DNA of 64,000 nt from Clostridia bacterium (GCA_022793875.1 JAAWDR010000004.1:4287-68286), one strand, 5' to 3'; positions 11,256-57,050 are shown, counted from the stretch's first letter. Notes: generated by a model from the sequence alone, not told the origin. Translations and numbers: made by a program.

Positions 11256-11960
11256 TTAATATCCACTACCTATAACTACTACTGCACGACTACGCCATGA
11301 CTTAACATATGAAGCATCATAATGAGTAATACTACCACTAGTAAAAGTCTCATTATGCTCACCATAATATGAAAATATACTTCCTGAATATGCACGAACT
11401 AAACCTGCCAAATGTGGAAATCTTCCTTTAAACCATTGAGACGCTCCACTTCCATGCCATCCTGCTGTTTCGGAAACAGCATCTCCGATTTTTGCAACAT
11501 AACTACTTTCATATACATTTTTGTACTTTCCCACTGCATTCTTAAAATTTGCTATCTCTAATGTTGAATGTCCTGCTGCTACCCATTCTTTATTTAAATT
11601 TATATATATACCAGACTTATTCCCTGTTGTTGATTCTCCATCTGCTACTTTTCCTTGCTTTCCATATGCTGATGCTGAAAGAATAGCCATTGCTCCATAC
11701 TCTGTGTTTTTCTGCATATGTATATCTAGATTATTTGGTGTTCCCGTTGTATCCAGATTACTTCCAACTTCTCCTGCTAATCCTAGCGTTCCTCCTGTTG
11801 ATTCCATTTTTCTTATATTGATTAGCCAATTATTTATGGTGTCAGCTTTTCCTGGATTTCCATTTGCTTGCAATGCTGCTTGCGATTTTATTGGATTTGC
11901 TATTAAACATATTGCTGATATTCCAATTATTGATAATAAAACTTTTCCTTTTAATTTCAT
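11256..11960 (-). CDS. Family-S secreted protein, copy 1
   Basis: 234 aa. Sec signal ...NPIKSQA/ALQANG and core HMQKNTEYGAMAILSASAYG, GWHGSGAS. Its stop is 28 nt upstream of the L1 start. Confidence 0.8.
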   Translation of the reverse strand: MKLKGKVLLSIIGISAICLIANPIKSQAALQANGNPGKADTINNWLINIRKMESTGGTLGLAGEVGSNLDTTGTPNNLDIHMQKNTEYGAMAILSASAYGKQGKVADGESTTGNKSGIYINLNKEWVAAGHSTLEIANFKNAVGKYKNVYESSYVAKIGDAVSETAGWHGSGASQWFKGRFPHLAGLVRAYSGSIFSYYGEHNETFTSGSITHYDASYVKSWRSRAVVVIGSGY

Positions 11961-12075: not shown

Positions 12076-14430
12076 TTATTTCAATTGATATTTACTCATC
12101 CAATATCCTGATATTTGTTCCCCTGCATCTTGTATTCCATTACTATTGTTATCCCACCAAAATGCCTCTGGTATTTTATATCCTGCTGTTGCCTTTGTTG
12201 TATCTTTTGATATGAAATTAATATCTATTCTTCTATTTGCTGTACTTAAACCACCTCTATCACTTAATATCTTATATTCATACCTTGGTATCCATACAAA
12301 ATATGATGTTGTTCCATTTCCTGTTGTTACTATATTTGCCCATTGTTGTTTTGTATAGTCATACCAATCTTCTGGTGGTTCTTCTGTTATTGGTACTCTT
12401 TTTTCACTTCCATCTGCATTATATACTACATAATATGTACATGATGGATTAAATCCTTTTCCATCTATTATTAACTCTGGTGCATTTGCTTCATTTGTTT
12501 TTATTTTCTTTGTTACTGCTCCTATATATGCATTATTTGTTCTATTTCTTGCTATTATATTTATTGTATATGTCTTATTTGCTTCTAATCCTGTAAATGC
12601 ATAATGTTCTGTACTACTATCTCCTTTTGCATCTGTCATTCTCTTTCCATTTATATAATATTCATATCTTGCATTTTCTCCAGCTAATGTTATTAATGTT
12701 CCCGTTATATCGTTTATTCTGATTACACTACTTCCTGCTGTCATTTCTGCATTCATTCTTGGTGTACTTTCCTCTGATGTTAATTGGTATTTGCTCATCC
12801 AATACCCTGTTAATTCCTCATTTTCTGTTCTCTTTCCATCATTATTATTGTCCCACCAAAATGCTTCTGGTATTTTATATCCTGATGTTGGTGTTGATCT
12901 TTTCCCTTCTATAAAGTTTATTATTGATTTTTGTGGATTTGATGTTCCATCTAATTGATATTCATATCTTGGTATCCACACATAATATGATTCTAATCCA
13001 TCATTTCTTGTTACTATATTTGCCCAATATGCTGATGTATAGTCATACCATGTATCTGGTGCTTTCTCTCTTATTGGTATTTCATTATGCTCATTTCCAT
13101 CATCATCCCAATATACATAGAATGTTGTATCTTTGTCAAATCCTGTTAAGTCTGGTTCATTTACATCTGCTACTTCATATACTACTGTTTTACTTCCTAT
13201 TACTTCTCCATTTGCATCTAATGCTGTTACATTTATTGATTTATGTCCTTTTACTAATCCACTTATTAGCTTATCTGGTGCTTGTGTACTTCCACCTTCT
13301 TTGCAATCATATGTATATAATATGTTTCCATTTATTGCATATGTATATTTTGCAACTTCTCTAACATTTGTTAAATGGCTTGTATCTAATTTTATGTTCT
13401 GGATATTTATTGATGTTACTGTTGCTGCTGTATCATAATCTATTACATATCCTTCTAATTCTGATAATTGGTATTTACTCATCCAATATCCTGGTATTTG
13501 TTCTCCTGCATCTTCTTTTCCATCACTATTATTATCCCACCAAAATGCTTCTGGCAACACATATCCTTGTTTTTTTAATTCTTCCCATGTTGTTTCTTCA
13601 TCTGTTTCTGCATCTTTATAGTTATTATTTGTGTCTACTAGTTTTACGTCCATTCTTTCATTTCCTGCAACTGAGTTCTTTGTATCTTTTTTATATACAT
13701 ATCTTGGTATCCATACATAATAACTTTCTATTCCATTGCTTTCTACATATAGATTTGCCCATTTTTGATTTTTATAATCATACCAATCTTCTTCTGGTTT
13801 CTTATTTATCCAATCTCCTGGTACTAAGTTTCCATCCCTATCATATGCATATCTTGTTGTGTCTTTTGAAAATCCTACATTTAATTGTGGTGTGCATAAA
13901 TACACATCATTTACATTTTCATAATTTCCATTTACTACTCCCATTTTTGATGGTGGTGTATATTCCCATATCTTTATTCCTATTTCTTCACACCATTTTA
14001 CTTGGTCTTTGTTATTTTTTATATTTTTTTGTGATACATAATACAATTCCCCTTCATGTATTATTGTATATCTTTCTTCTTCTTTTCCTACCTCTGGTAC
14101 TAATTTCTTTATATCTACAACAACATCTTCTGTTATTTCTAAGCCTTCATCAACTATTATCTTTTTTAATACTTCTCCTGCATATACTTCTGTGCTCTCT
14201 CCATTCATTGATAAATTGATTTTATATATATCCCATTGTTCTGCTATTGTTGCCATTTTTGTTTTAAATTTTGCTTCTTCTGCTCTTTTAAACAATCCAC
14301 TTCCTGCTAGTGTTCCTATTGTTAATCCTGCCAAGATTAACAATATAATTATTGTTATTACTAATGCTATTAATGTTATTCCTTTATTTCTTTTGTTTTT
14401 TGTTGATATTTTTTCTTTATTCCATATCAT
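12076..14430 (-). CDS. Family-L giant protein, copy 2
   Basis: 784 aa, colinear paralog of 8855-11227 with the same leader and three Trp-rich modules. Confidence 0.85.
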   Translation of the reverse strand: MIWNKEKISTKNKRNKGITLIALVITIIILLILAGLTIGTLAGSGLFKRAEEAKFKTKMATIAEQWDIYKINLSMNGESTEVYAGEVLKKIIVDEGLEITEDVVVDIKKLVPEVGKEEERYTIIHEGELYYVSQKNIKNNKDQVKWCEEIGIKIWEYTPPSKMGVVNGNYENVNDVYLCTPQLNVGFSKDTTRYAYDRDGNLVPGDWINKKPEEDWYDYKNQKWANLYVESNGIESYYVWIPRYVYKKDTKNSVAGNERMDVKLVDTNNNYKDAETDEETTWEELKKQGYVLPEAFWWDNNSDGKEDAGEQIPGYWMSKYQLSELEGYVIDYDTAATVTSINIQNIKLDTSHLTNVREVAKYTYAINGNILYTYDCKEGGSTQAPDKLISGLVKGHKSINVTALDANGEVIGSKTVVYEVADVNEPDLTGFDKDTTFYVYWDDDGNEHNEIPIREKAPDTWYDYTSAYWANIVTRNDGLESYYVWIPRYEYQLDGTSNPQKSIINFIEGKRSTPTSGYKIPEAFWWDNNNDGKRTENEELTGYWMSKYQLTSEESTPRMNAEMTAGSSVIRINDITGTLITLAGENARYEYYINGKRMTDAKGDSSTEHYAFTGLEANKTYTINIIARNRTNNAYIGAVTKKIKTNEANAPELIIDGKGFNPSCTYYVVYNADGSEKRVPITEEPPEDWYDYTKQQWANIVTTGNGTTSYFVWIPRYEYKILSDRGGLSTANRRIDINFISKDTTKATAGYKIPEAFWWDNNSNGIQDAGEQISGYWMSKYQLK

Positions 14431-14456: not shown

Positions 14457-15134
14457 TTAAAATCCATTTCCTACTACTATGACTGCTCTACTAAACCATG
14501 GTTTAGTATACCAAGTTGAGTCTCTATCTCCGAACTTGGACTGAGCACGATACGCAAATATACCATTCTGATATGCACGTAATATTCCTACACTATCCAT
14601 TATATTCCAATCAGAATAATTACTTCCATGCCATCCTCTTGTTTCAGTAATAGCATCTCCTATTTTAGCTACATATGTATTAGTATATATATTCTTATAC
14701 TTTCCTTCTGCATTTTTGAAATTTACTACATTAAAATTATTAATTCCTGCTACTACCCATTCTATATTTAAAAAAATATATATTCCTGACTTATTTCCCG
14801 TAGTTGTTTCTCCATCAGCTATCTTTTTTTGATTCCCATAAGCTGACGCTGATAATATTGCCATCGCTCCATATTCTGTATTTTTTTGCATATGTATATC
14901 TATATTATTTGTTTCTCCTGAGTCTGTTAAATTTCCGTTTATCCCTGCCGCTAGTCCTAGTGTTCCTCCTATCGCTTCCATTTTCCTTATATTTATTAGC
15001 CAATTATTTATTGTATCTGTCTTTCCTGTATTCCCATTTGCTTGTAATGCTGCTTTTGATTTGATTGGATTTAATATCAGGCATATCGCTGATATTCCAA
15101 TTATTGATAATAAAAATTTTTCTTTTACTTTCAT
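14457..15134 (-). CDS. Family-S secreted protein, copy 2
   Basis: 225 aa paralog. Its stop is 26 nt upstream of the L2 start. Confidence 0.8.
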   Translation of the reverse strand: MKVKEKFLLSIIGISAICLILNPIKSKAALQANGNTGKTDTINNWLINIRKMEAIGGTLGLAAGINGNLTDSGETNNIDIHMQKNTEYGAMAILSASAYGNQKKIADGETTTGNKSGIYIFLNIEWVVAGINNFNVVNFKNAEGKYKNIYTNTYVAKIGDAITETRGWHGSNYSDWNIMDSVGILRAYQNGIFAYRAQSKFGDRDSTWYTKPWFSRAVIVVGNGF

Positions 15135-15258: not shown

Positions 15259-15933
15259 TTAAAATCCATTGCCAACTACTATGACTGCACGTGAAGAATA
15301 TACTCTATTATTAAGTGCTATTCCACTAGTATCACCTGCTCCTGCAAAATATGAAAACAAACTACCTGAATATGCACGAATAACCCCTGTATTACTATTA
15401 TTAATCCATCTAGAAGCTCCGCTTCCATGCCATCCATTTGTTTCAGTTATAGCATCTCCTACTTTTGCTACATATGTTGCTGTATATATATTTTTATATT
15501 TTCCTAATGCATTTTTAAAATTCGTTGAACTTAAATCATTAAGTCCAGCTGATACCCATTCCTTATTTAGTGCAATATATATACCAGACTTATTTCCTGT
15601 AGTTGTTTCTCCATCAGCTATTTTTTTTTGATTTCCATAAGCTGACGCTGATAATATTGCCATCGCTCCATATTCTGTATTTTTTTGCATATGTACATCT
15701 ATATTATTTGTTTCTCCTGAGTCTGTTAAATTTCCATTTATTCCTGCCGCTAGTCCTAGCGTTCCTCCTATTGCTTCTATCTTTCTAATATTGATTAACC
15801 AATCATTTACAGTTGCTGTTGAATTTCCATTCCCATTTGCTTGTAATGCAGCCTTCGATTTTATTGGATTCAGTATTAAACATATTGTGGATATTCCTAT
15901 TATTGATAATAAAATTTTTTTCTTTACTTTCAT
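15259..15933 (-). CDS. Family-S secreted protein, copy 3
   Basis: 224 aa paralog. Its upstream intergenic region is near-identical to that of copy 2. Confidence 0.8.
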   Translation of the reverse strand: MKVKKKILLSIIGISTICLILNPIKSKAALQANGNGNSTATVNDWLINIRKIEAIGGTLGLAAGINGNLTDSGETNNIDVHMQKNTEYGAMAILSASAYGNQKKIADGETTTGNKSGIYIALNKEWVSAGLNDLSSTNFKNALGKYKNIYTATYVAKVGDAITETNGWHGSGASRWINNSNTGVIRAYSGSLFSYFAGAGDTSGIALNNRVYSSRAVIVVGNGF

Positions 15934-16062: not shown

Positions 16063-16746
16063 CTAAAATCCACTTCCTACTACGACCACGGCACGGCTAG
16101 ACCACTGCCTAGTGTAGATAGCGTCAACGTAGCTGTTGTCGCCTCTACCATAATACGAGAACAAACTACCCGCATACGAACGAAGTAATCCGCTGCTGAG
16201 GCAGATGGTCATCCACTGAGACGCCCCACTTCCATGCCATCCATTTGTTTCAGTTATAGCATCCCCTACTTTTGCTACATAACTTTCTGTATATATATTT
16301 TTATATTTTCCTACTGCATTTCTAAAGTTTTCTAGATAGTTTCCTAATTCATTACCTCCTGCTGCTACCCATTCTTTATTTAAATTTATATATATACCAG
16401 ACTTATTCCCTGTTGTTGATTCTCCATCTGCAACTTTTCCTTGCTTTCCATATGCTGATGCTGAAAGAATAGCCATTGCTCCATACTCTGTGTTTTTCTG
16501 CATATGTATATCTAGATTATTTGGTGTTCCCGTTGTATCCAGATTACTTCCGACTTCTCCTGATAAGCCAAGCGTTCCTCCTGTTGATTCCATTCTTCTT
16601 ATATTTATTAGCCAATTATTTATTGTCCCTATCGAACCTGGATTTCCATTTGCTTGCAATGCTGCTTTTGATTTGATTGGATTCAGTATTAAACATATCA
16701 TTGATATTCCAATTACTGATAACAAAAATTTTTCTTTTACTTTCAT
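16063..16746 (-). CDS. Family-S secreted protein, copy 4 (GC-rich 3' end)
   Basis: 227 aa paralog. The central part matches copy 1. The last ~50 codons use GC-rich codons atypical for this window. Confidence 0.8.
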   Translation of the reverse strand: MKVKEKFLLSVIGISMICLILNPIKSKAALQANGNPGSIGTINNWLINIRRMESTGGTLGLSGEVGSNLDTTGTPNNLDIHMQKNTEYGAMAILSASAYGKQGKVADGESTTGNKSGIYINLNKEWVAAGGNELGNYLENFRNAVGKYKNIYTESYVAKVGDAITETNGWHGSGASQWMTICLSSGLLRSYAGSLFSYYGRGDNSYVDAIYTRQWSSRAVVVVGSGF

Positions 16747-19984: not shown

Positions 19985-22900
19985 CTATTGGACATCTTCT
20001 TCTTTTTTCTCTGTATTAATATGAGTTTCTTGATATCTCTTCATACCAGTACCAGCTGGAATTAACTTACCAATAATAACATTTTCTTTTAATCCAACTA
20101 AATCATCTGTCTTACCTTTAATTGCAGCTTCTGTAAGAACTCTAGTTGTTTCTTGGAATGATGCTGCTGATAAGAAACTTTCTGTTGCAAGAGATGCTTT
20201 AGTAATACCAAGTAATACTCTATGTCCTGTTGCTGGGCGTTTACCATTTGCAACTGCTTCATTATTTTTATCTTCAAAGTCATACATATCAACTAATGAA
20301 CCTGGGAACATATCAGTATCTCCATTATCTTCAACTCTAACTTTTTTAAGCATTTGTCTACCAATAACTTCAACGTGTTTATCATTTATATCAACACCTT
20401 GATTTCTATATACTTTTTGAACTTCAGATGTTAAGTATTCGTAAACTCCTTCTGGTCCTTTTAAAGTAAGTATTTCTGATGGATTTATAGAACCTTCAAT
20501 TAATGGATCTCCAACTTCTACTATGTCTCCATCTTTTACTTTCATCTTTGAACCAAATGGTATTGTATATGTTCTTGAATCATCATTAGAAGTAACAACA
20601 ACTTCTTTTTTCTTCTTAGTTTCTTTTATTTTAACTTTACCTGCAATTTCTGTAATAATTGCAACTCCCTTAGGTTTTCTAGCTTCGAATAATTCCTCGA
20701 CTCTAGGAAGACCTTGTGTAATATCTGCTACACCTGCAACACCACCAGAGTGGATAGTTCTCATTGTAAGCTGTGTACCAGGCTCACCTATTGATTGTGC
20801 AGCTATGATACCTACAGATTCTCCTATTGATACAAGACTTCTTCTTGCTAATCCCATACCATAACATTTTTGACATACACCGTGTTTTGATCTACATGCT
20901 AGAACTGAACGTACTTCTAGTTTTTCAATTCCTGCTGCAACTATTTTATCAGCTATTTCATCTGTTATCATAGTTTCTGTGTCAACAATTAGTTCTTTAG
21001 TATTTGGATCATATACATCATTTACAGCAAATCTACCAACCATTCTTTCTTGCATTTTTTCAATTACTTGATTTCCGTCTTTAATATCATAAATTACTAG
21101 CCCTTCATGTGTTCCACAATCATATTCTCTAACTATAATATCTTGTGATACATCAACTAATCTTCTTGTTAAATATCCTGAGTCAGCTGTTCTTAAAGCT
21201 GTATCTGAAAGTCCCTTACGAGCACCATGAGCAGAAATGAAATATTCTAGAGCATCTAGCCCTTCTGCAAATGATGATTTAATAGGAATTTCTACGGCTT
21301 TACCTGTTGTACTAGCCATAAGTCCACGGATACCTGCAATTTGTCTTAATTGGTTCATATTACCTCTGGCTCCAGATTTAACCATCATATATATTGGGTT
21401 TAAGTCTTCAAAGTTTTCTTCCATCGCTGTACTTATTTTCTTTGTAGCATCTTCCCAAACTTTAATTACTGAATTATATCTTTCTTCATTAGTAATTAAA
21501 CCTCTTGCATATTGTTTTCTGATTGTTTCAATTTTTTTATCAGCTTCTTCTAGTAATCCTTTTTTAGCTTCAGGCACTTTAACATCACTCATTGAGAATG
21601 TAATACCTGCAAGTGTTGAATATTTAAATCCTAAAGATTTTATATAGTCAATTACTTCTGCTGATTCTACAACACCATGTACTTTTATTTCTCTGTCTAT
21701 TATTTGTCCCATTGTTTTCTTAACTACTGGGAAGTTTATTTCATATTGGAATGGATCTTCTTCTCTATTTACAAAACCTAAATCTTGAGGAATTCCCTGG
21801 TTAAATATAATTCTACCAACACTTGTTTCAATCTTTTTAGATTTCATTTCTCCATTAATTTCTTTTGTTATTCTAACAAATATCTTAGCATGCATACTTA
21901 TATCATTATTTTCATATGCCATTATTGCTTCTTCTGGGTCTTTGAAATATTTTCCTTCTCCCAATTCTCCCTCTAATGTCATTGTTAAGTAATAACTTCC
22001 TAAAATCATGTCTAGTCTAGGTACTGCAACTGGTTTACCATCTTGTGGTTTTAATAAGTTATTTGTTGCAAGCATTAAGTATCTAGCTTCTGCTTGTGCT
22101 TCTGGTGATAATGGTAAGTGAACTGCCATTTGGTCACCATCGAAGTCAGCATTAAATGCTTCACAAACTAATGGGTGAAGTTTAATTGCTCTACCTTCTA
22201 CTAATACTGGTTCAAATGCTTGTATACCTAATCTGTGTAGAGTAGGTGCACGGTTTAACATTACAGGATGATCTTTTATAACATACTCTAATATTTCCCA
22301 TACTTCTGGTCTTAATCTTTCTACCATTCTTTTAGCATTTTTTATATTTTGAGCAATTCCTCTTCCAACTAATTCTTTCATTACAAATGGTTTGAATAAT
22401 TCAACAGCCATTTCTTTTGGAAGACCACATTGATAAATATTTAGTTCTGGTCCAACAACTATAACAGAACGTCCAGAATAGTCAACTCTCTTACCTAATA
22501 AGTTTTGACGGAATCTACCTTGTTTTCCTTTTAACATATCAGATAAAGATTTTAAAGCTCTATTTCCAGCACCTGTTACAGGCTTTCCTCTTCTACTATT
22601 ATCAATTAATGCATCTACAGATTCTTGTAACATTCTTTTTTCATTTCTTACAATTATTTCTGGAGCACCTAATTCTAATAATCTTTTTAATCTGTTATTT
22701 CTATTAATAACTCTTCTATATAAGTCATTTAAATCAGAAGTTGCAAATCTACCACCATCTAATTGAACCATTGGTCTTAACTCTGGCGGAATTACTGGTA
22801 CAACTGACATTATCATCCATTCTGGTTTTGTATCTGATAATCTAAATGAATCAATTGTATCAAGTCTTTTAACAATTTTACTTTTCTTTTGCTCACTTGC

Positions 22901-23494
22901 ATTTTCTAATTCTTTTCTTAAATCGTTAGACAATTTATCTAAATCAACTTTTTCTAATAATTCTTTTAAAGCTTCTGCACCCATTCTAGCCTTAAATGTA
23001 CCTTTACCACATCTTTCTTCTGCTTCATGATATTCTTTTTCAGTTAAAACTTGGCATTCACTTAAATCTGATGTTCCTTTATCTGTAACTATATAAGAAG
23101 CAAAATATACTACCTTTTCTAAATTACGTGGTGAAACATCTAGTATCAAAGCAATTCTACTAGGAATTCCTTTAAAATACCAAATATGTGCCACTGGTGC
23201 AGCAAGTTCAATATGTCCCATTCTTTCTCTTCTAACTTTTGATTTAGTTACTTCAACACCACATCTATCACATACTATTCCTTTATATCTAACCCTTTTA
23301 TATTTACCACAATGACATTCCCAGTCTTTTGTTGGTCCAAAAATTCTTTCACAGAATAGACCATCTCTTTCTGGTTTTAATGTTCTATAATTTATAGTCT
23401 CAGGTTTTTTAACTTCACCTTTTGACCATTCTCTTATTTTCTCATCTGATGCAATTCCTATTTTTATTTTATTAAAAATATCTAATTCGTCCAC
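19985..23494 (-). CDS. rpoC: DNA-directed RNA polymerase subunit beta'
   Basis: 1169 aa with NADFDGD, a zinc-binding CxxC cluster and [14 protein letters not shown] start after aggggga. Confidence 0.97.
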
Positions 23495-23764: not shown

Positions 23765-24115
23765 TTATATTTCTACATTAAGTTGTTTTTCTATAAATGT
23801 TTTTACAACAGGTATATCCTCGACTGCTGTATAAAATATTTTTGTAGAATCCATTTTACCATAACCATGTGCAAAACGGTTTCTCATTCCTCTTATGGCA
23901 TTCCAGTTCATATCATTTTTAGTTTCTTCTAAATATTCATCTGTTAAATGATTTGCTAATTCTCCAATTTGAAATATTTTCATAGAAAGTGAATCTTTAT
24001 AATCATTATCTAATTTAAACTTTTCAATATCATTTCCAAAACGATTTATAGTAGCATTAATCTCATTACAATACTTTAACATATGTTTTAAAACTGTTAT
24101 ATCTCTATTCTCCAT
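23765..24115 (-). CDS. hepT: HepT-like (DUF86) RNase toxin of a type VII TA system
   Basis: 116 aa with the Rx4HxY motif RNRFAHGY. Overlaps the upstream nucleotidyltransferase gene by 11 nt. Confidence 0.8.
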   Translation of the reverse strand: MENRDITVLKHMLKYCNEINATINRFGNDIEKFKLDNDYKDSLSMKIFQIGELANHLTDEYLEETKNDMNWNAIRGMRNRFAHGYGKMDSTKIFYTAVEDIPVVKTFIEKQLNVEI

Positions 24116-24446
24116 AAATCATCACTCTCTCTTTTTTTATATTTTCATAAAATTCTTCTTCAAAATCTTCCATTTGTTCATTTTCAAAACATTCTTCTTC
24201 AATTAAATCAACATCCTTTTGTAATGTTTCTTTCAAATTTTCAAGAATTATTCCTATAACAAATAAACTTCTTATATTTTTTGCTACTATTATAATATCA
24301 ATATCGCTATTTTCATTATAATCTCCTCTAGCATAAGAACCAAAAATATATGCTTTATCTACACCATATTTTCTAAATATTGGCTCTGTAAGTTTTTTTA
24401 TTTGAGCAATAGCCTCTTCTTTATTTAATTTTTCCATAAGCTTCAC
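24105..24446 (-). CDS. mntA: MNT-type nucleotidyltransferase antitoxin
   Basis: 113 aa with GSYARGD and SDIDI (GSx10-20DxD pattern of minimal nucleotidyltransferases). Confidence 0.8.
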   Translation of the reverse strand: MKLMEKLNKEEAIAQIKKLTEPIFRKYGVDKAYIFGSYARGDYNENSDIDIIIVAKNIRSLFVIGIILENLKETLQKDVDLIEEECFENEQMEDFEEEFYENIKKERVMIYGE

Positions 24447-24592: not shown

Positions 24593-27500
24593 TTATATTA
24601 AGTCGTCATCATTGGCAAGATTATCCTCAGCCAAATCACTATCGAAAATAGCATCATCATCTTCATCATCTAAATCTTCAAATAAATCATCACTATCTTC
24701 GTCAACCTCTTCTTCATCTAATAAAACATCATCTTCAACATCCTCGCTATAGCCATCAGCCAAATCATCAGCAGCTACAACCTCATCTTCTGCTAAATAC
24801 TTTTTATCTTTTTCAGGATCATATTCAATTCCATCTTCAATATTTTCCTTTAATTCAAGTTCTTGATTATCTTCTGAATATAAACGAATATCTAATCCTA
24901 AAGATTGTAATTCTTTTACAAGAACTTTAAAGCTTTCTGGAACACCTGGCTCAGGAATATTTTCACCTTTAACTATTGATTCATAAGTTTTTACTCTACC
25001 TACAACATCATCAGATTTAACTGTTAACATTTCTTGTAATGTATAAGCAGCACCATAAGCTTCCAATGCCCAAACTTCCATTTCTCCGAAACGTTGTCCA
25101 CCAAATTGAGCTTTACCTCCAAGTGGTTGTTGTGTAACTAATGAGTATGGTCCAGTTGAACGAGCATGTATTTTATCATCAACTAAATGGTGAAGTTTCA
25201 ACATGTACATTACACCAACTGTAATTGGCTTATCAAATGGGTCACCTGTTCTACCATCATATAGAATTGATTTACCATCTTCACTCATTCCTGCTTGTTT
25301 TAATAATTCTTCAACATCTTCTTGTGTTGCACCATCAAATACTGGTGTTGATACATGCCATCCTAAAGCTTTAGCTGCTCCTCCTAAGTGAACTTCAAGT
25401 ATTTGTCCTAAATTCATACGAGATGGAAGTCCAAGTGGGTTAAGTAATATATCTATTGGTGTACCATCTGGTAAGAATGGCATATCTTCTTCTGGTAATA
25501 CTCTTGAGATAACACCTTTGTTACCATGACGTCCAGCCATTTTATCTCCAACTGATATTTTTCTTTTTGTTGCTATATAACATCTAATTATTTGATTTAC
25601 TCCTGGTCCTAATTCATCTGAATTATCTCTTGTAAAGATTTTAACATCAACTATTGTTCCAGCTTCTCCATGAGGTACTTTTAATGATGTATCTCTTACT
25701 TCCCTAGCTTTTTCACCAAAGATTGCTCTTAATAATCTTTCTTCAGCTGTTAATTCTGTTTCTCCTTTTGGAGTAACTTTACCAACTAAGATATCTCCTG
25801 GTCTAACTTCTGCACCTATTCTTATAATACCATTTTCATCTAAGTCTTTTAATACATCATCACCAACATTTGGTATATCTCTTGTTATTTCTTCTGGCCC
25901 TAATTTTGTATCACGACATTCACAATCATATTCTTCAATATGTATTGATGTAAATACATCTTCTTTTACTAATCTTTCATTTAATAGTATAGCATCCTCA
26001 TAGTTGTATCCTTCCCATGTTGAGAAAGCAACTAATGCATTTTTACCTAATGACATTTCACCATCTTTTGTTGATGGACCATCAGCTATGCTATCTCCTT
26101 TTTTAACTTTTTCTCCAACTTTAACAATTGGTCTTTGGTTTATACATGTACCACCATTTGTTCTTTTGAATTTACGTAATTTATGTACTACTGTTTTTCC
26201 ATTTTTATATTTAACTGTAATAGCATTTCCTGTAACTTTTTCAATAACACCATCATCTTCTGCTAGTATTAATATTCCAGAATCTTTTGCTGCTCTATAT
26301 TCAATACCTGTTGCAACTATTGGTCTTTCTGTTATCATTAAAGGAACCGCTTGTCTTTGCATGTTTGCACCCATTAAAGATCTTTTTGCATCATCATGCT
26401 CTAAGAATGGTATCATGGCTGCTGCTATAGATACTAATTGTTTTGGTGAAACATCTATATATTGAACTCTGTCTTTTTCAACTTCTATGATTTCATTTTT
26501 ATATCTAACTCTAATTCTGTCATTTACAAATTCACCATTTTCGTTCATTGGTTCAGATGCTTGTGCTATTATGTAATTATCTTCTACATCTGCACTCATA
26601 TATTCAACATTATCTGTTGCTCTATGTGTTTCTGGATCTATTTTTCTGTATGGTGTTTCTATGAATCCATATTCATTTATATTTGCAAATGATGAAAGTG
26701 CTGAAATTAATCCAATGTTCGGTCCTTCTGGTGATTCTATTGGACATAGTCTACCATAGTGTGTATAGTGAACGTCTCTAACTTCAAATCCAGCTCTTTC
26801 TCTTGTAAGACCTCCAGGTCCTAATGCTGAAATTCTTCTTTTATGTGTTAATTCTGAAAGTGGGTTAGTTTGATCCATAAATTGTGACAATTGTGAACTT
26901 CCAAAGAATTCTCTTATTGATGATGTTATTGGTTTTGTATTAATTAATGTTTGTGGTGTTACAACATCTAAGTCTTGAATTGTCATTCTTTCTCTTACAA
27001 CTCTTTCAAGTCTTGTTAGACCAATTCTAAATTGATTTTGTAATAATTCCCCAACACATCTAATTCTACGATTAGCTAAGTGGTCTATATCATCTACATT
27101 TCCTAATCCATGAGCTAAATTTAATAAATAGTTTATAGATGATAACATATCTTCTGTTGTAATAGTTTTTGGTATTAATTCATCAATTCTTTGTCCAATT
27201 ACTTTTACTAAATCTTTCTCATCAGTATTTTCAATTATATTTTGTAATACTTGATAATTTACTTCTTCTTTTATATTTAAAGAACTTAAATCAACTGTTG
27301 GTAATACTTCATGAATGTTTACAGTTCCATTTCCTATAACTCTAACTGTTCTTTCTCCAACTAATACATCAACAATATTTATTCCTGCATTTTTAATATT
27401 TTTAGCAACTTCTGCAGATATAACTTCTCCTGCTTGTACAAATACTTCTCCTGTTTCTTTATCCATTATATCTTTTGCTGCAATTTTTCCTGTTATTCTT

Positions 27501-28351
27501 GTTGATAAACTTAATTTTTGATCAAATTTATATCTACCAACTTTTGCTAAATCATATCTTCTATTGTCATAGAATAATCCATCAAATAAATTTCTTGCTG
27601 CGTCTACTGTTGGAAGTTCTCCTGGTCTTAATTTCTTATATATTTCAATTAAAGCTTCTTCTTGAGTTTTAATTGTATCTTTTGAAATTGTTGCATTTAA
27701 TAATTCTTCATCTCCAAATAAATCTCTTATTTGGTCATCTGTAACTATTCCTATTGCTCTTAATAATGTTGTTACTGGTACTTTTCTTGTTCTATCAACA
27801 CGAACATAAAAAATATCATTTCCATCTGTTTCATATTCTAGCCATGCTCCTCTTAATGGCATAACTGTTGATGTATATGTTCTCTTTCCTGTTTTTGTGT
27901 CAAATTCCTCTGCATAATAACATCCTGGTGAACGTACTAATTGGCTTACTACAACTCTTTCTGCACCATTTATTATAAATGTTCCACTATCTGTCATTAA
28001 TGGAAAATCACCTAAGTAAATTTCTTGCTCTTTTATTTCTCCTGTTTCTCTGTTTATTAAACGAACTTTAACATGTAATCTTGTTGAATATGTTGCATCT
28101 CTTTCTTTTGCTTCTTCAATTGAATATTTTGTCTTGTCCTCCATATAGTAATCAAAAAATTCAAGAACTAGATTTCCAGAATAGTCTTCTATTGGTGATA
28201 TATCTTTTAATACTTCTCCTAATCCTTCATTTACAAACCATTCATATGAATCTTTTTGTACTTTGATTAAGTTTGGCATTTCAATAAAATCTCCAACTTT
28301 TGCGAAATCTTTTCTTGAAGCTTTTTCATATTGTACATCTTTAATTTTCAA
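24593..28351 (-). CDS. rpoB: DNA-directed RNA polymerase subunit beta
   Basis: About 1250 aa with the conserved blocks of beta ([25 protein letters not shown]). The probable start is TTG at 28351 after agggag; the ORF opens at 28360. Confidence 0.97.
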
Positions 28352-28754
28352 AAAAATCACTCCCTATAAAAATTTGAAGCAGATTCCTTAAGTTCTTAAT
28401 TAATACTTTCGCATTTAATTTAGAATTTAAGTATAAATTTGTTTGATTTTAAGAAAAGTCCTTCTTACAATACAGTTACTCTTATATCTAAATTATCTCG
28501 TCTGCTTTTCGAGCTAGTTTATCTATATTTTACTGTATTTAATTCCTCTCTTCTTAAATTTTGAACTTAGTATTTTGAATTTTATTTCTTTTGAAAAAAA
28601 TTATAATTAATCACTCTATATGATACCACATTTTACCAGTAAAAGTCAAGAGTTTCACAATATTTTTGATAAAAATTGTAATATAATTATTGCTTTTGCA
28701 AATAGATTATAGTAAAATAATCAAGAAATTATTTATAGAAAGGACAAAAGAATT

Positions 28755-29421: not shown

Positions 29422-29943
29422 TCAGTTATCATATAAATAATCCAATGCTTGTTTAACATTTGTTATATCTGTACCATCTTTTGATTTCCATGCACTATCT
29501 GATGGTATAAATTCGACCATTTCTGCTGTAATAATTTCTGGTACTGTAACATTTTCTATTCCTTTATATTCTGTTGTTCCATCTGTTATATAAAATATAA
29601 ATCCATCATTTGTTATTAATTTTATTTTATTTATATTTTTATCTTCTATACTTTCACTAACCCAGTCTCTTTGCTTAGAATCATTAAAGGCTATATTTAG
29701 CCTTTCTAATGTAATTCCACCATTGTAAGATAATCTTGTTTCTACTTTTATTAGCTCTATTTTTTCCTTATATTGTGCAATTAAAGTTTCTTCTTTTGCT
29801 AATTCTGCTTTTTTTAACAATCCACTTCCTGCTAAGGCTGATATTGATATTCCTGCTAAAATTAATAAAATTATGATTGTGATTACGAGTGCTACTAATG
29901 TAATACCATTATTATTACAAAATTTATCTTTTTTCTCTTGCAT
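29422..29943 (-). CDS. Small protein with the same prepilin-like leader as family L
   Basis: 173 aa. MQEKKDKFCNNNG/ITLVALVITIIILLILAGISISALAGSGLLKKAELAKEE. Confidence 0.75.
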   Translation of the reverse strand: MQEKKDKFCNNNGITLVALVITIIILLILAGISISALAGSGLLKKAELAKEETLIAQYKEKIELIKVETRLSYNGGITLERLNIAFNDSKQRDWVSESIEDKNINKIKLITNDGFIFYITDGTTEYKGIENVTVPEIITAEMVEFIPSDSAWKSKDGTDITNVKQALDYLYDN

Positions 29944-30000
29944 TTTAAAATTTTCTCCTTTTCTTTTGATTTTTTACAAAATTATATTATCATATCTGCA
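29944..30000 (-). promoter_or_regulatory. Conserved promoter/5' leader shared with the 43758 gene and the S genes
   Basis: The minus strand reads ..GATATGATAATATAATTTTGTAAAAAATCAAAAGAAAAGGAGAA..ATG and aligns with 43759-43830. The AAATCAAAAGA..GGAGAA leader is also present before S1-S4. Confidence 0.45.
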
Positions 30001-30075
30001 ATTCCTATTATATATTTTTAATTTTCCAAGCACAATAAAGTGCATATTTTTTATTATGCACTTTTACATAATATT

Positions 30076-40457: not shown

Positions 40458-41630
40458 ATGGAATTTTTAGATTACTTAGATGAAGAAGTTAATCATACTT
40501 ATCACCACGATAATTATAAGTCAAAATTTAAAATTAAAGATATTTTTAATGACCACTGGTACTCTTTTTTAGATGATAACCCTAACTTGAACATTAGACC
40601 TATTGTTCTTGAAGAAGTCGAAAAGATGATGGGCTGTGGTTCTCTTTCTAATGGTTATGCTGTCTATACTTGCGACCATTGTAATAATTATTTATATGTG
40701 CCTTTTACTTGTAAATCTCGTTTTTGTTGCTCTTGTGGTACTAAATCTTCTTTAGATAGAGCTGACACTATTTCCAGAAAATCTATCAACTGCACTCATA
40801 GACATATGACTTTTACTATTCATAATGACCTTTGGCCTCTTTTTCAAAAAGATAGATCTTTACTTAATCTCCTTTTTGATGCTGTTTCTTCCACTATTCT
40901 TTCTTGGTTCTATGAGCAAAATCATAAAGAAAATTTTACACCTGGTTTTATTTCCACTTTACATACCTTTGGTCGTGATTTAAAATGGAATCCTCATATT
41001 CACGTCCTTATTACTGAAGGGGCTGCTGGAAACTTTACTCATTGGAAAAAGTTCAATGTTTTTCCTTATATTATGCTTCGTAATCGATTTCAAACTACTT
41101 TACTTTCTTTACTTGAAAAGCATTTTGGTAAGAAAAAATTTAAAGCTCTCAAAAATCATATCTATAAAACTTCTTCTAATGGTTTTTATGTTCATGCTCC
41201 TAAAGTTAAACATCGTAATATTAAATCTACTGTTACATATGTTATTCGTTATTCTGGTAAACCTGCTATGGCTCAATCTCGTATTCTTGACTATGATGGA
41301 GAATATGTTACTTTTTGGTATGATAGACATGAAGATAATCAACATGTTACTGAAAAAATTCATGCTTATGATTTTATCAAAAGACTTATTATTCATATTT
41401 ATGATAAACATTTTAATGTTGTTAGATATTATGGGCTTTATGCTAAAAAACATAAATTTTCTGATAAATTCAATTACATGCTTAAGCCTCATGTTGCTGA
41501 ATTTAGAAAACAATTTAAAAATTGGAGATATCGTATTGAATTATATTTTAAACATGCCCCTCTTAAATGTTCTTGTGGGCATACTTTTCACTTTGACTAT
41601 CTTGTTCAAAAGTCGTATAATACCTCTTAA
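40458..41630 (+). CDS. IS91 family transposase (zinc-binding N-domain plus Y2 HUH domain)
   Basis: Cys-rich N-terminus (CGS..YTCDHCNN..FTCKSRFCCSCG), HTFGRDLKWNPHIHVLITEG, YVIRYSGKPAM and RYYGLYAKK. Confidence 0.8.
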   Translation: MEFLDYLDEEVNHTYHHDNYKSKFKIKDIFNDHWYSFLDDNPNLNIRPIVLEEVEKMMGCGSLSNGYAVYTCDHCNNYLYVPFTCKSRFCCSCGTKSSLDRADTISRKSINCTHRHMTFTIHNDLWPLFQKDRSLLNLLFDAVSSTILSWFYEQNHKENFTPGFISTLHTFGRDLKWNPHIHVLITEGAAGNFTHWKKFNVFPYIMLRNRFQTTLLSLLEKHFGKKKFKALKNHIYKTSSNGFYVHAPKVKHRNIKSTVTYVIRYSGKPAMAQSRILDYDGEYVTFWYDRHEDNQHVTEKIHAYDFIKRLIIHIYDKHFNVVRYYGLYAKKHKFSDKFNYMLKPHVAEFRKQFKNWRYRIELYFKHAPLKCSCGHTFHFDYLVQKSYNTS

Positions 41631-41633
41631 GAG

Positions 41634-41858
41634 GTGATTATTTTGAAAATTAGAAGACCAACTTATACTGAATTTATTTGTACTCATTGTAAATGTCATG
41701 AAAAGATTCCTACTAAAATTGTTTTACAAATGGATATGATGGATCCTGGGGATCCTATTTATCCACCTATGTTTGATTGTGAAAAGTGTGGTGGCTTAAT
41801 GAAACCTGTATATTTCATCGGTTATACTGGTATTGAATATTCTTACGATGGCAATTAA
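41634..41858 (+). CDS. Small zinc-ribbon protein downstream of the transposase
   Basis: 74 aa with CTHCKC and CEKCGG pairs. SD aagagg lies before an in-frame TTG at 41643. Confidence 0.4.
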   Translation: MIILKIRRPTYTEFICTHCKCHEKIPTKIVLQMDMMDPGDPIYPPMFDCEKCGGLMKPVYFIGYTGIEYSYDGN

Positions 41859-42019
41859 TTATTTACATATATTTCCATTTATACCTTTTTATTAAGGTCT
41901 TTTTGTGTTGTCTTTAATATTTTTGTAACTTTATGTTACTTAATTATATTATAATAGAGTTTTTTCTTTTTTTCAATATTTCTTCTTTCTTCAACATTCG
42001 TTCCATTGCGAAGAATGAG

Positions 42020-42195
42020 CAATTTAGTACAAAAGAACAGTTTTCGAATATAAAAAGAAAGCATCTTCTAAAGTTGAAGAAAACACTTTCACGCAGTATG
42101 CTTACGCTTGCAAACAATTAGGCATACACATCGAAACTAGTTCTGTACCAGAATTTAAGCCACGTGTAGAAAGACTTTCTCAAGCACATACATAA
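42020..42195 (+). pseudogene. Remnant of a DDE (rve-type) transposase
   Basis: The frame reads ..ENTFTQYAYACKQLGIHIETSSVPEFKPRVERLSQAHT*. This resembles the ..F.RAC.ELGI......SPQAKGR(V/I)ERL block of integrase-core transposases. It has no start codon and no N-terminal part. Confidence 0.4.
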
Positions 42196-42353
42196 AACGA
42201 TTTAATTACAAATTCGCTTTATGTATTAATAATAACAAATCTGTATATGAAAATCAACCAAGTGAAGAAAAAATAAATCTTATAATATAGTGTGATGCAA
42301 CTGTGAAAGCTGTACCACACCACTATTGATAAAGTCTCAATCATAAGTGCTAG

Positions 42354-42653
42354 TTATAAAACTCTAAACCGATCTAGAATGATATCGAGCCACGCTATCA
42401 TATTTGAGGCATCTGAACACCCATTTATAACCATCCATACCAAATCCCCATCAACTCTAACCTCCGCACTTACACCAACCCTATATGTTTGAACGCTGTG
42501 GGTTGTATATACACTGAAACGCTCGGCATCCGCTATTTCTTCTCTTCTACAACTTCCAGACCATACTTTGATCCAAGGCATATGGGTCGACGTAGAATTA
42601 GTACTTCCTAATTTTATTTTAACTCTTCCATATTCGCCGTAATTTTTCACCAA
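42354..42653 (-). CDS. C-terminal continuation of the pilin-like Big_2 protein in another frame (GC-rich)
   Basis: 99-aa ORF opening right at the end of 42619-43758. A 1-nt shift within AATAAATA would fuse them. G+C is visibly higher than in the surroundings. Confidence 0.5.
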   Translation of the reverse strand: MVKNYGEYGRVKIKLGSTNSTSTHMPWIKVWSGSCRREEIADAERFSVYTTHSVQTYRVGVSAEVRVDGDLVWMVINGCSDASNMIAWLDIILDRFRVL

Positions 42654-43758
42654 CGAGATCCATATTTATTACAAACCCTGCGTAATTTATCTGCGGACTC
42701 TTTAAAGGCAGTCTAATGTGATTACGCAAATTATTATAAGATGTATTGGTAAAAGAATCGTTATAAACAACCTTGATAACTTCAGATGTAAATAATTCAC
42801 TAAGATCATTACTACCTGAAATCGTTATAGGTGGGCTGACAACATTTAAATCGCACTCTCGACTTTTATTCCCTGCTTTTGCATATATTTTAGTTCTTCC
42901 TGATTTACCTGCAGTTATCATTCCATTATCTGATATGGTTGCAACACTTTCATCCAAACTATTCCATTCTATATTATCTGTTGTATTGCTTGGTTCTACT
43001 GTTGCTGTTAACTGTAATGTTTTTCCTACTTCTACTGTTGCACTTTCTTGTGATATACTTAATCCTGTAGCTGGTATTCTTGTTGTTGCTGTAATTTTCT
43101 TTGTTACACCACTATTTACTTCTTTTACTGTTATTTCTACATCTCCTATTTTATCTTTTGCTGTTAATTTTATTTTTCCATTTTCTGTTTTACTTGCTTC
43201 TATTGTAGTACTATCACTAGATATTACTGTTACTTCTGGCTCTTTACTTATTTCTCCTACATTTGTTTCTTCTGTATTTACTATAATATTTCCATTATTA
43301 AATAGTATTTCATAATATTTTCCTTGTACTTCTACAAAATATCTTACGGTTGTCCCCTCTGAATAAACAAATGTATATGTTACTGTTTTTTCTGTATTTC
43401 TCTCTACTGTCACATTTTCTTCGCTTAATGCTATTCCTGTTATAGCATTTTCTCCACTAGTAATTTCCTTTATCTTATATCCTTTTTCTTTTAAGTCACT
43501 TATTACTCCTGCCATTGTGGTTTGTTCGCCACCTGCTATTTCTTCCATTTGTCCTTCCATATATGATATTCTTGCGAATTCTTCTATTTCTTTTAGCTCT
43601 GATATTTTTGTTGCTTCTTGTGCTTTTCCAAATAATCCACTATTTGTTAATGAATTTATTGTTATTCCTGCTAATATTAACAATATTATTATTGTTATTA
43701 CTAGTGCAACTAATGTTATACCATTATTTTTGCAAAATAAAACATTTTTCTTTATCAT
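42619..43758 (-). CDS. Prepilin-like-leader protein with a Big_2 (bacterial Ig-like) domain
   Basis: MIKKNVLFCKNNG/ITLVALVITIIILLILAGITINSL. Big_2-like GLSISQESATVEVGKTLQLTATVEPSNTTDNIEWNSLDESVATISDNGMITAGKSG. Confidence 0.75.
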   Translation of the reverse strand: MIKKNVLFCKNNGITLVALVITIIILLILAGITINSLTNSGLFGKAQEATKISELKEIEEFARISYMEGQMEEIAGGEQTTMAGVISDLKEKGYKIKEITSGENAITGIALSEENVTVERNTEKTVTYTFVYSEGTTVRYFVEVQGKYYEILFNNGNIIVNTEETNVGEISKEPEVTVISSDSTTIEASKTENGKIKLTAKDKIGDVEITVKEVNSGVTKKITATTRIPATGLSISQESATVEVGKTLQLTATVEPSNTTDNIEWNSLDESVATISDNGMITAGKSGRTKIYAKAGNKSRECDLNVVSPPITISGSNDLSELFTSEVIKVVYNDSFTNTSYNNLRNHIRLPLKSPQINYAGFVINMDLVGEKLRRIWKS

Positions 43759-43893
43759 CTTACAATCTTCTCCTTTTTCTTTTGATTTTCTACAAAATCA
43801 TATTATCATACCAGCAATTATTTTGCAAGCATTTTTGAGTGCATATTTATTTTTTCATATAATGTAAAATACTTGCATGAGGAAATAAATAAT

Positions 43894-44094
43894 ATGAATA
43901 AATTAAAAATTCCAGAAAACCATAGTGGTATAAGCAAAACTCTACGCTTACCAGAAAATTTAGTAGATGATGTTCAAAACTTAGCAAACATAAAAAATCT
44001 ATCATTTAACAGAATTATAATTTCATTAATAGAATTTAGTTTAGAAAATTTAGATGAAGAAGATAAAAATAAATTAAATTCATTAAAAAATTAA
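43894..44094 (+). CDS. Possible ribbon-helix-helix (CopG/Arc-like) small protein
   Basis: The MNKLKIP start has SD gagga. ISKTLRLPENLVDDVQNLA...SFNRIIISLIEFSL fits a beta-strand-helix-helix pattern. Confidence 0.4.
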   Translation: MNKLKIPENHSGISKTLRLPENLVDDVQNLANIKNLSFNRIIISLIEFSLENLDEEDKNKLNSLKN

Positions 44095-44364
44095 AATTTC
44101 TACATCTATATCATTATCTAAACTAAAACATAAACTATTTTTTAATTCTTTAACATCATAAACCTGATTAAAATTTATAGAAAAATGCGTTTTATCTATA
44201 TCATCTTTTATAGTTAATATATCATTTTCTATACCATATACTAATTTTTTTATATAAAATTGACTAGAAACAAAGCCTTTCTGCTTAAGAGCAATTGGCT
44301 TTTCTTTATATTTTTCTAAACAATTTAAAACATTCATTAACATTCTATCATCCATAATCATCAC
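44083..44364 (-). CDS. Hypothetical 93-aa protein
   Basis: ORF only; no motif recognised. Confidence 0.35.
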   Translation of the reverse strand: MMIMDDRMLMNVLNCLEKYKEKPIALKQKGFVSSQFYIKKLVYGIENDILTIKDDIDKTHFSINFNQVYDVKELKNSLCFSLDNDIDVEILIF

Positions 44365-56714: not shown

Positions 56715-57050
56715 AATATTACCTCCCAAAATATAAAATGCTATAATTTTTAATACATTTTTCGACATTTTTACATAATATCTCTAAATAAAATTATACA
56801 CCAAAAATAGTGATTTTTCAACCATTTTTAATAAAATATTACTTATATTTTTACAATATATATTATAGTTACATTCATTTATAAAGTAAAGCCCTTCTAA
56901 TCCACAATATTTAAACAATTTGTGCACTATTTACGGAATCCTTAATATTACAAAATATTAAATTTTCTTTACTTTTTTATCAAATTTTGTAATTTTTTAT
57001 TCTTATTTCAACCTACTTAGCCTATTTCCCTAAGTTTTTTTATGTAATAT

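Follow-up and report, generated by a model that had tools for sequence, protein, structure and literature searches.

Four proteins encoded in the window analysed here, a stretch of 64,000 nucleotides from a Clostridia bacterium, start with almost the same N-terminal segment. This segment resembles the cleavage and methylation motif of type IV prepilins, but it carries Ala at position +5 in place of the Glu on which filament assembly is held to depend. Is it a signal of the prepilin type, or a generic membrane anchor? The window is chromosomal (27.5% GC), with ffh, rpoB, rpoC, spoIIE, tatD, acpS and other housekeeping genes, and its organism is a spore-forming member of the Clostridia.

We find that all four ORFs are real (Table 1) and share the N-terminal pattern that the preliminary description had claimed for them. 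A short basic leader, rich in K, N and R, ends in Gly and is directly followed by the hydrophobic stretch ITL(I/V)ALVITIIILLILAG(L/I)(T/S)I, spanning +1 to +21, and then by GSGL(F/L).(K/R)A. The alignment of the first ~55 residues contains 27 invariant columns. Performing a six-frame motif scan of the whole window, we found G-ITL(I/V)ALVITIIILLILAG at the N-termini of these four ORFs and nowhere else. The translations also bear out the replacement at +5, which is Ala in 4/4 proteins; none has the Glu5 of type IV pilins. Over the 22 codons from Gly-1 to +21, the window genes differ by 5-10 synonymous and 0-3 non-synonymous changes. The dominance of synonymous differences argues that the identity is kept by purifying selection on the protein and is not a recent duplication or conversion tract. 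Chance or low-complexity similarity was rejected from the motif scan, this codon comparison and the census described below. The passengers behind the leader had been called otherwise unrelated. This stands for five of the protein pairs, in which similarity is confined to the leader, but not for L1 and L2, the passengers of which are 74.6% identical over ~730 aa. Thus, the window holds three unrelated passengers and not four, L1 and L2 being paralogs.

Pfam N_methyl matches all four proteins below its threshold (15.7-18.4 bits against a gathering score of 21.2). Weak NCBIfam similarity to the PpdD, GspG, ComGC and ComGE models reaches 20-40 residues beyond the hydrophobic stretch. A Sec/SPase I signal peptide was rejected, as the hydrophobic stretch is at least 21 residues long, there is no A-x-A site and Gly is fixed at -1.

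Table 1 Positions of the leader-bearing genes in the window, of their surroundings and of related features in other loci.
Feature	Sequence	Position	Strand	Remarks
L1	window	8855-11227	minus	790 aa; Gly18, then ITLIALVITIIILLILAGLTI; modular pilin candidate
Secreted paralog beside L1/L2	window	11256-11960	minus	
L2	window	12076-14430	minus	784 aa; Gly17; L1 paralog with the same leader
Secreted paralog beside L1/L2	window	14457-15134	minus	
Secreted paralog beside L1/L2	window	15259-15933	minus	
Secreted paralog beside L1/L2	window	16063-16746	minus	
rpoC	window	19985-23494		
HepT-like RNase / MNT nucleotidyltransferase pair	window	23765-24446	minus	between rpoB and rpoC
rpoB	window	24593-28360		
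173-aa protein	window	29422-29943	minus	Gly13; pilin-sized
Leader, hydrophobic alpha1-N segment and conserved polar motif of the 173-aa protein	window	29794-29943	minus	aa 1-50
Upstream block of the 173-aa gene	window	29944-30030	minus	common to the 379-aa gene
Insertion relative to L001	window	40458-44364		
IS91-family transposase	window	40458-41630		Y2_Tnp + Zn_Tnp_IS91
379-aa protein	window	42619-43758	minus	Gly13; leader MIKKNVLFCKNNG / ITLVALVITIIILLILAGITI; modular pilin candidate
Upstream block of the 379-aa gene	window	43759-43845	minus	matches that of the 173-aa gene
Giant surface protein	window	47500-51819	minus	1,439 aa
Giant surface protein	window	51840-56768	minus	1,642 aa
Leader protein in the slot of the 173-aa gene	L001	10001-10324		107 aa
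L1-like modular pilin, then homolog of the secreted paralogs	L024	10001-12743		
PilD-like protein	L039	11369-12181		orthologs in 88 other loci
pilB, as two overlapping ORFs	L039	13075-14710		
pilT, as two overlapping ORFs	L039	14722-15829		
Stand-alone canonical A24 peptidase	L031; L050; L069	964-1716; 5737-6513; 19131-19883		PF01478 61-67 bits
Tiny major-slot pilin	L109	42-260		
Tiny major-slot pilin	L115			
Tiny major-slot pilin	L120	5697-5915		
Tiny major-slot pilin	L146	5594-5809		

The 173-aa protein is built from the leader MQEKKDKFCNNNG, followed by ITLVALVITIIILLILAGISI, GSGLLKKAELAKEE and a small alpha/beta domain, with a predicted cleavage site at Gly13/Ile14. It reaches 17.9 bits with N_methyl (sub-threshold) and E 6e-5 with the PpdD model. 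Its AF2 model (pLDDT 82) shows a helix at 13-38, a GSG kink, a helix at 42-72 and a four-strand sheet, a predicted outline that resembles the pilin lollipop. A Foldseek search of the PDB with this model gave nothing significant, T. thermophilus PilA5 ranking first at E 1.2. The protein has 1,085 homologs at E<=1e-3. We also checked its slot in L001, a contig that shares synteny with the window (its rpoB/rpoC is 88% identical at the nucleotide level), and found a 107-aa leader protein there instead, which by eye resembles the tiny operon pilins described below. The slot, between the Sm_multidrug_ex gene and rpoB, keeps a leader-bearing pilin in L001 and L002-L004, and the mature part differs.

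The 379-aa protein consists of the leader, a short pilin-like region and a Big_2 Ig-like domain at aa 230-297, which was noted earlier and is detected here at E 1.3e-15. The L1/L2 passenger (~720 aa) has no confident Pfam match. Each of L1 and L2 contains three internal repeats of ~150-200 aa, with the motifs W.DY..W.AN(I/L)..., YYVWIPRYEY, IPEAFWWD and GYWMSKYQL; a weak FGE-sulfatase hit falls on one leader-family member elsewhere. L1 and L2 are interspersed with four paralogs of ~225-234 aa, which are 62-74% identical, have Sec-type signal peptides and find no match in Pfam or NCBIfam. In L024, an L1-like modular pilin is likewise followed by a homolog of these secreted proteins, which may be partners or cargo of L1-type pilins.

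The genes of the 173-aa and 379-aa proteins have ~85 nt of upstream sequence in common (…TATGATAATAT.ATTTTGTA.AAAATCAAAAG.AAAAGGAGAA…). This block holds a putative TATGATAAT extended -10-like element, a common 5'UTR and an AAAGGAG RBS, and the leader motif FC(N/K)NNG is common to the two proteins too. It would seem, therefore, that the promoter is part of the 5' cassette that was exchanged. Operon major pilins in L109 and L120 are likewise preceded by the RBS context TCAAAAGAAAAAGGAG. The 379-aa gene lies in an insertion relative to L001, where a WG-repeat gene directly follows spoIIE. Besides this gene, the insertion carries an IS91-family transposase and a 93-aa ORF. Thus, this modular pilin candidate sits in a variable, possibly mobile, segment.

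To see how far the leader extends, a profile made from the four window leaders was run against 1.84 billion 50%-identity representatives. It matched 29,280 representative clusters at E<=1e-3 and 7,312 at E<=1e-10. The leader is clearly not a duplication artefact of a single genome, a reading that the preliminary description had named as one that would overturn its own. Position statistics were taken from 248 family members with an intact N-terminus. Position -1 is Gly in 238 and Ala in 10 (96% and 4%), and this restriction to Gly or Ala matches the specificity of prepilin peptidases. Position +1 is Ile in 246/248, and T2, L3 and T9 are invariant. At +5 there is Ala in 237 (96%), Ser in 7, Thr in 2 and Val in 2, with Glu or Asp in none. 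Past the helix, the family keeps L24-T25-G26-x-G28-(L/I)-F-x-K-A.

The family proteins are 60 to ~700 aa long, and their passengers, which include Big_2, F5/8 type C (discoidin), Flg_new, fn3, LRR, DUF285 and an FGE-sulfatase-like domain, are surface or adhesin modules. N_methyl was found at E<=1e-3 in just 23/73 family proteins. In many loci there are several leader genes. In species-representative genomes, the profile matched at least 375 loci; the best 80 of these lie almost without exception in MAGs labelled uncultured Clostridia or Clostridium sp., and a few carry the label Bacilli, Erysipelotrichaceae or Lachnospiraceae. The isolate names of these 80 indicate samples from human (Hadza), rabbit, chicken and sheep. 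The leader peptide is kept in many MAGs from the gut of human, rabbit, chicken, sheep and mouse. The lineage is one of low-GC, uncultured, spore-forming gut Clostridia. An association with phages was rejected, as 2.9 million viral contigs gave 5 weak hits and no more.

We checked the window for genes that could process and assemble such proteins, and found no PilB/T2SSE, PilC/T2SSF, pilD or A24 peptidase gene in it. The public contigs that carry the window encode no pilus machinery or peptidase within 10 kb beyond either of its ends. A dedicated prepilin peptidase, suggested earlier as a check, is thus absent from the window and its 10 kb flanks; the same search succeeded in three related leader-bearing MAGs, as given below.

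In related gut Clostridia, the leader lies within a type IV pilus operon. We examined 89 loci, 9 among the best 80 of at least 375 genome loci and 80 metagenome loci fetched with the PilD-like protein. The order of genes is conserved as pilMN, pilO-like, pilin(s), PilD-like, two minor pilins, pilB, pilT and pilC. The same leader begins the small pilins of the major-pilin slot, one to three in number, the genes of which lie immediately upstream of the PilD-like gene. A pilin occupies this position in 72/73 loci with room upstream, the metagenome loci with such room having it in all cases but one. Among 80 distinct major-slot pilins, +5 is Ala in 79 and Ser in 1. In 49/68 loci, the first pilin-like gene downstream encodes an acidic residue at +5, Asp in 47 and Glu in 2 (G|FTGIDI…); the remaining 19 show Ser, Ala or Thr at this position, as does the second minor pilin (G|VTLTSLIIY…). 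The leader thus marks the pilins of a conserved PilT-containing pilus operon in this lineage.

The operon of L039 includes a PilN-containing fusion of ~540 aa, a PilO-like protein of ~241 aa and a small TM protein. It further comprises three tandem Ala5 pilins (127-138 aa), the A24_N_bact protein and two more pilin-like genes, together with T2SSE with MshEN (PilB), T2SSE (PilT) and T2SSF (PilC). The identities of PilB and PilT were confirmed with NCBIfam on the L026 orthologs. In L039 itself, the reading frames of pilB and pilT are broken, each into two overlapping ORFs. Both are intact in L026, L051, L054 and L035 (544-547 and 365-368 aa), and what is seen in the L039 MAG is probably due to a frameshift in the assembly or to a pseudogene. 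The same operon is present on an independently annotated JGI contig, where a separate gene call with Pfam labels agrees, and automatic annotation at JGI calls some leader proteins 'pseudopilin PulG'.

The exact leader subtype of the window, 'III' (GITLVALVITIIILLILAGISIA…GLF..AQ.AKE), is found in the major slot in L109, L111, L112, L115, L118-L120, L133, L135-L137, L139 and L146. These operon loci have 25.6-26.8% GC, against 27.5% for the window. Major-slot proteins with the leader are 68-199 aa long. The tiny ones of the 'III' subtype are precursors of 68-78 aa, ~62-70 aa when mature, with almost no globular domain, and are comparable in size to Geobacter PilA or ComGC. Four MAGs contain the operon together with scattered leader proteins that have large passengers: BRZ_DD_bin29 (L076 with L017, L018 and L059), BRZ_L_bin35, ERS329794_bin95 and ERS329807_bin34. 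Leader genes with passengers of 300-950 aa are found scattered outside the operon, several per genome. Neither the PilD-like homologs of the 'III' subtype nor the NCBI accessions next to MCI8617894.1 of the sister MAG HFJ60 linked the pilus operon to the window's genome or to that MAG, and none of the JGI PilD-like contigs for the window's sample was tied to the window's genome.

The PilD-like protein shows a strong A24_N_bact match (E 1e-29 to 1e-32) and CxxC…CxxC motifs. A24_N_bact is the N-domain linked to N-methylation (PMC10191384, PMC3584216). PF01478 (Peptidase_A24) gave no match even at E<=10 in 8/8 operon PilD-like proteins, and the precomputed Pfam assignments of 240 close homologs list PF06750 only, with PF01478 in none. 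Comparing 41 distinct sequences, we find no GxGD motif; positions 204-205 are G-E (95%) and not G-D. D126 and E128 (GIDKE) are invariant in this set, D176 is conserved at 90% and T-G-E205 at 95%. The conserved GIDKE lines up with the first catalytic Asp motif of canonical PilD, and the hhalign alignment with canonical A24 ends at this motif (probability 1.7%). A PDB sequence search gave zinc-finger noise alone, NCBIfam gave nothing, and Foldseek on the AF2 model (pLDDT 68) was uninformative. NCBI annotates the protein in Clostridium sp. CAG:470 as 'leader peptide-processing enzyme'.

Three leader-bearing MAGs encode a canonical A24 peptidase as a protein of its own, no more than 10 kb away from a leader protein. 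It has the motifs IDY…IPN, GFGDVKL and IPFGPF and is devoid of the A24_N_bact methylase domain. Its neighbourhood reads HAD phosphatase, A24 peptidase, Xaa-Pro aminopeptidase, efp. Judging from these motifs and domains, the protease and methylase functions may plausibly be split between two proteins.

We consider it likely that the common N-terminus joins two elements, a class III (prepilin-type) signal peptide specific to this lineage and the core helix (alpha1-N) of a type IV pilin. The earlier proposal of a prepilin-like signal with Ala5, distinct from a generic anchor, gains support from the N_methyl similarity, the Gly or Ala at -1, the operon slot and the census. The decisive support for the pilin reading comes from the presence of the leader in the major-pilin slot of the relatives' operon. 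As to the four window proteins, we regard a role in this system as pilins, plain or adhesin-carrying, as the most likely. According to this reading, the precursor would insert in the membrane, an A24 prepilin peptidase would cut after the Gly at -1, and Ile1 would possibly be N-methylated by the operon PilD-like protein, which retains the methylase-type domain. The PilB/PilC machinery would then extract the helix into the filament core. The 173-aa protein would be a stand-alone pilin, and the Big_2 protein, L1 and L2 would be modular pilins that display adhesin-type modules on the pilus or at its tip. The helix would be near-invariant across passengers because it must fit one peptidase and pack against the same major-pilin helices.

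Since the major subunit normally has Ala5 here, the usual salt bridge from Glu5 to the N-terminal amine would be unused in this system. We tentatively suggest, as a possibility that falls somewhat short of an even chance, that the lineage builds a retractile Ala5 type IV pilus without the salt bridge, with a split peptidase and methylase and with adhesive modular pilins used in combination. If this is true, no subunit needs Glu5, so dozens of adhesin-carrying modular pilins per genome could join one filament.

A different fate of the large proteins deserves consideration. The class III signal may be real and only the small operon pilins polymerise, with the large-passenger proteins, once cleaved, staying anchored by the helix or building short structures akin to a pseudopilus or bindosome by which binding modules are pushed across the wall, like archaeal sugar-binding proteins with class III signals or T2SS pseudopilins. 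The scattering of the 300-950-aa passenger genes outside the operon and the carbohydrate-binding types among their passengers, e.g. F5_F8_type_C and Big_2, fit such an arrangement, and bulky modules fit a filament body poorly, the literature placing them at tips (PMC8179133). We find it unlikely all the same. No direct evidence of such assemblies in one-membrane bacteria is known, and the modular pilins of S. sanguinis do enter pili (PMC8179133, PMC9934059). Moreover, alpha1-N of the large proteins is kept as strictly as that of the operon pilins, T2 and T9 included, which suggests the same packing.

That the segment is an uncleaved N-terminal signal-anchor (type II) of an expanded paralogous surface family, its prepilin likeness being ancestral or convergent, appears very improbable. 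A simple anchor does not account for a -1 residue that is Gly or Ala in 248/248 proteins, nor for ~20 positions that stay nearly invariant across 7,312 clusters. The missing Glu5 and the sub-threshold N_methyl scores speak for an anchor, as do the lack of a peptidase in the window and of GxGD in the operon PilD-like protein; yet canonical A24 peptidases are present in these MAGs, and the same N-terminus begins the 68-199-aa major-slot proteins beside pilD, pilB, pilT and pilC. The upstream block common to the 173-aa and 379-aa genes, and the IS91-type transposase that adjoins the latter, would suit a recent 5' cassette duplication or gene conversion inside this genome, free of functional constraint. 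We give this almost no credence: 5-10 synonymous against 0-3 non-synonymous differences in 22 codons, and the same peptide in many MAGs from five gut hosts, tell against it. As a sole explanation, duplication is refuted by the census, the host range and the codon differences, although cassette exchange may contribute to the spread of the 5' module.

Taking the segment as a class III signal and pilin helix, we compared the system with known ones. Glu5 is held to be essential and forms a salt bridge to the amine at the N-terminus of its neighbour in the filament; no pili are made with ComGC E5A (PMC8727766). The type IV pilins of monoderms (Clostridium, S. sanguinis PilE-type; IPR012902/PF07963) share with the proteins described here the short basic leader ending in Gly and the ~21-residue hydrophobic helix from +1 with T2 and L3, followed by a GspG-like polar stretch. 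In the relatives, the operon likewise brings together a pilM/N fusion, pilO, pilD, pilB, pilT and pilC, and the predicted shape of the 173-aa protein resembles the pilin lollipop. The present proteins differ from them in having Ala and not Glu at +5 (79/80 major pilins), Ile and not Phe or Met at +1 and no Pro22. They also differ in the sub-threshold Pfam signature (PF07963, TIGR02532, IPR012902 class) and in the size of some major pilins, only 68-78 aa.

Pilins that naturally do without Glu5 have been described, each as the only cap subunit of its system: GspK/PilK in the HIJK complex, and PilA in S. sanguinis (PMC9934059, PMC10628169, PMC10191384). Their Glu5-less N-termini resemble those found here, and they still enter type IV filaments. 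These caps are single low-abundance apical subunits encoded among the minor pilins. The pattern is inverted in the present system, where the major slot, often in 2-3 tandem copies, and many paralogs are Glu5-less and the acidic residue at +5, Asp or Glu, is kept by one minor pilin of the operon. An identity as cap-type minor pilins was rejected, since the leader occurs in the major slot and on many paralogs per genome.

The modular pilins (S. sanguinis PilB with vWA and PilC with a lectin; >1,200 InterPro architectures, PMC8179133) combine a pilin module with binding modules and are often encoded away from the machinery, as here, where the passengers are Big_2, discoidin, LRR and fn3. The combination that defines them, a pilin module plus a domain that is not pilus-specific, is found in the Big_2 domain of the 379-aa protein and in the passengers of the family. 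The leader proteins lack Glu5, whereas S. sanguinis PilC has it. The published census of modular pilins was keyed on IPR012902 (PMC8179133). The leader mostly fails IPR012902, and this large set is therefore probably missing from it. Archaeal class III proteins (pilins, archaellins, Sulfolobus sugar-binding proteins) also have no conserved Glu5 and many passengers per leader, but they are processed by PibD/FlaK under different leader rules, and the machinery here is bacterial and T4aP-like, including PilT. With bifunctional PilD (A24_N_bact + Peptidase_A24), the operon protein shares the N-domain, CxxC…CxxC and the operon position; it differs by the lack of PF01478 and GxGD, in place of which it has 'TGE' (95%), and by the separate A24 next to efp.

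The proteins would thus belong to a known kind, the type IV pilins, as a Glu5-less system with a large repertoire of modular pilins. A full-text literature search for the motif string ITLIALVIT returned no paper, and none on this leader or on Ala5 major pilins was found in the literature, the coverage of which was incomplete, so a prior description may exist. Glu5 has been treated as near-universal and essential in bacterial type IV pilins, and E5A or E5V major-pilin mutants fail to assemble. The Ala5 major pilins, in thousands of protein clusters from the gut microbiota of several hosts, would be a natural counter-example to the Glu5 rule. Comparing Ala5 with canonical filaments could reveal the actual roles of Glu5 and N-methylation. 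Pilin censuses based on signatures (IPR012902, PF07963, PilFind-type rules) largely miss this leader family, so the pilus-displayed adhesins of abundant uncultured gut Clostridia are under-annotated as 'hypothetical proteins'.

Two further observations concern the window itself. It encodes two adjacent giant surface proteins with SdrD_B and DUF11 repeats. Both have an ordinary signal sequence at the N-terminus and, at the C-terminus, a hydrophobic anchor that carries a basic tail; an LPXTG motif is not visible in their last 50 residues. They represent a different route of surface anchoring in the same genome. The window also holds a toxin-antitoxin pair, a HepT-like RNase with an MNT nucleotidyltransferase, between rpoB and rpoC; in the syntenic L001, rpoB and rpoC are adjacent with a gap of ~127 nt.
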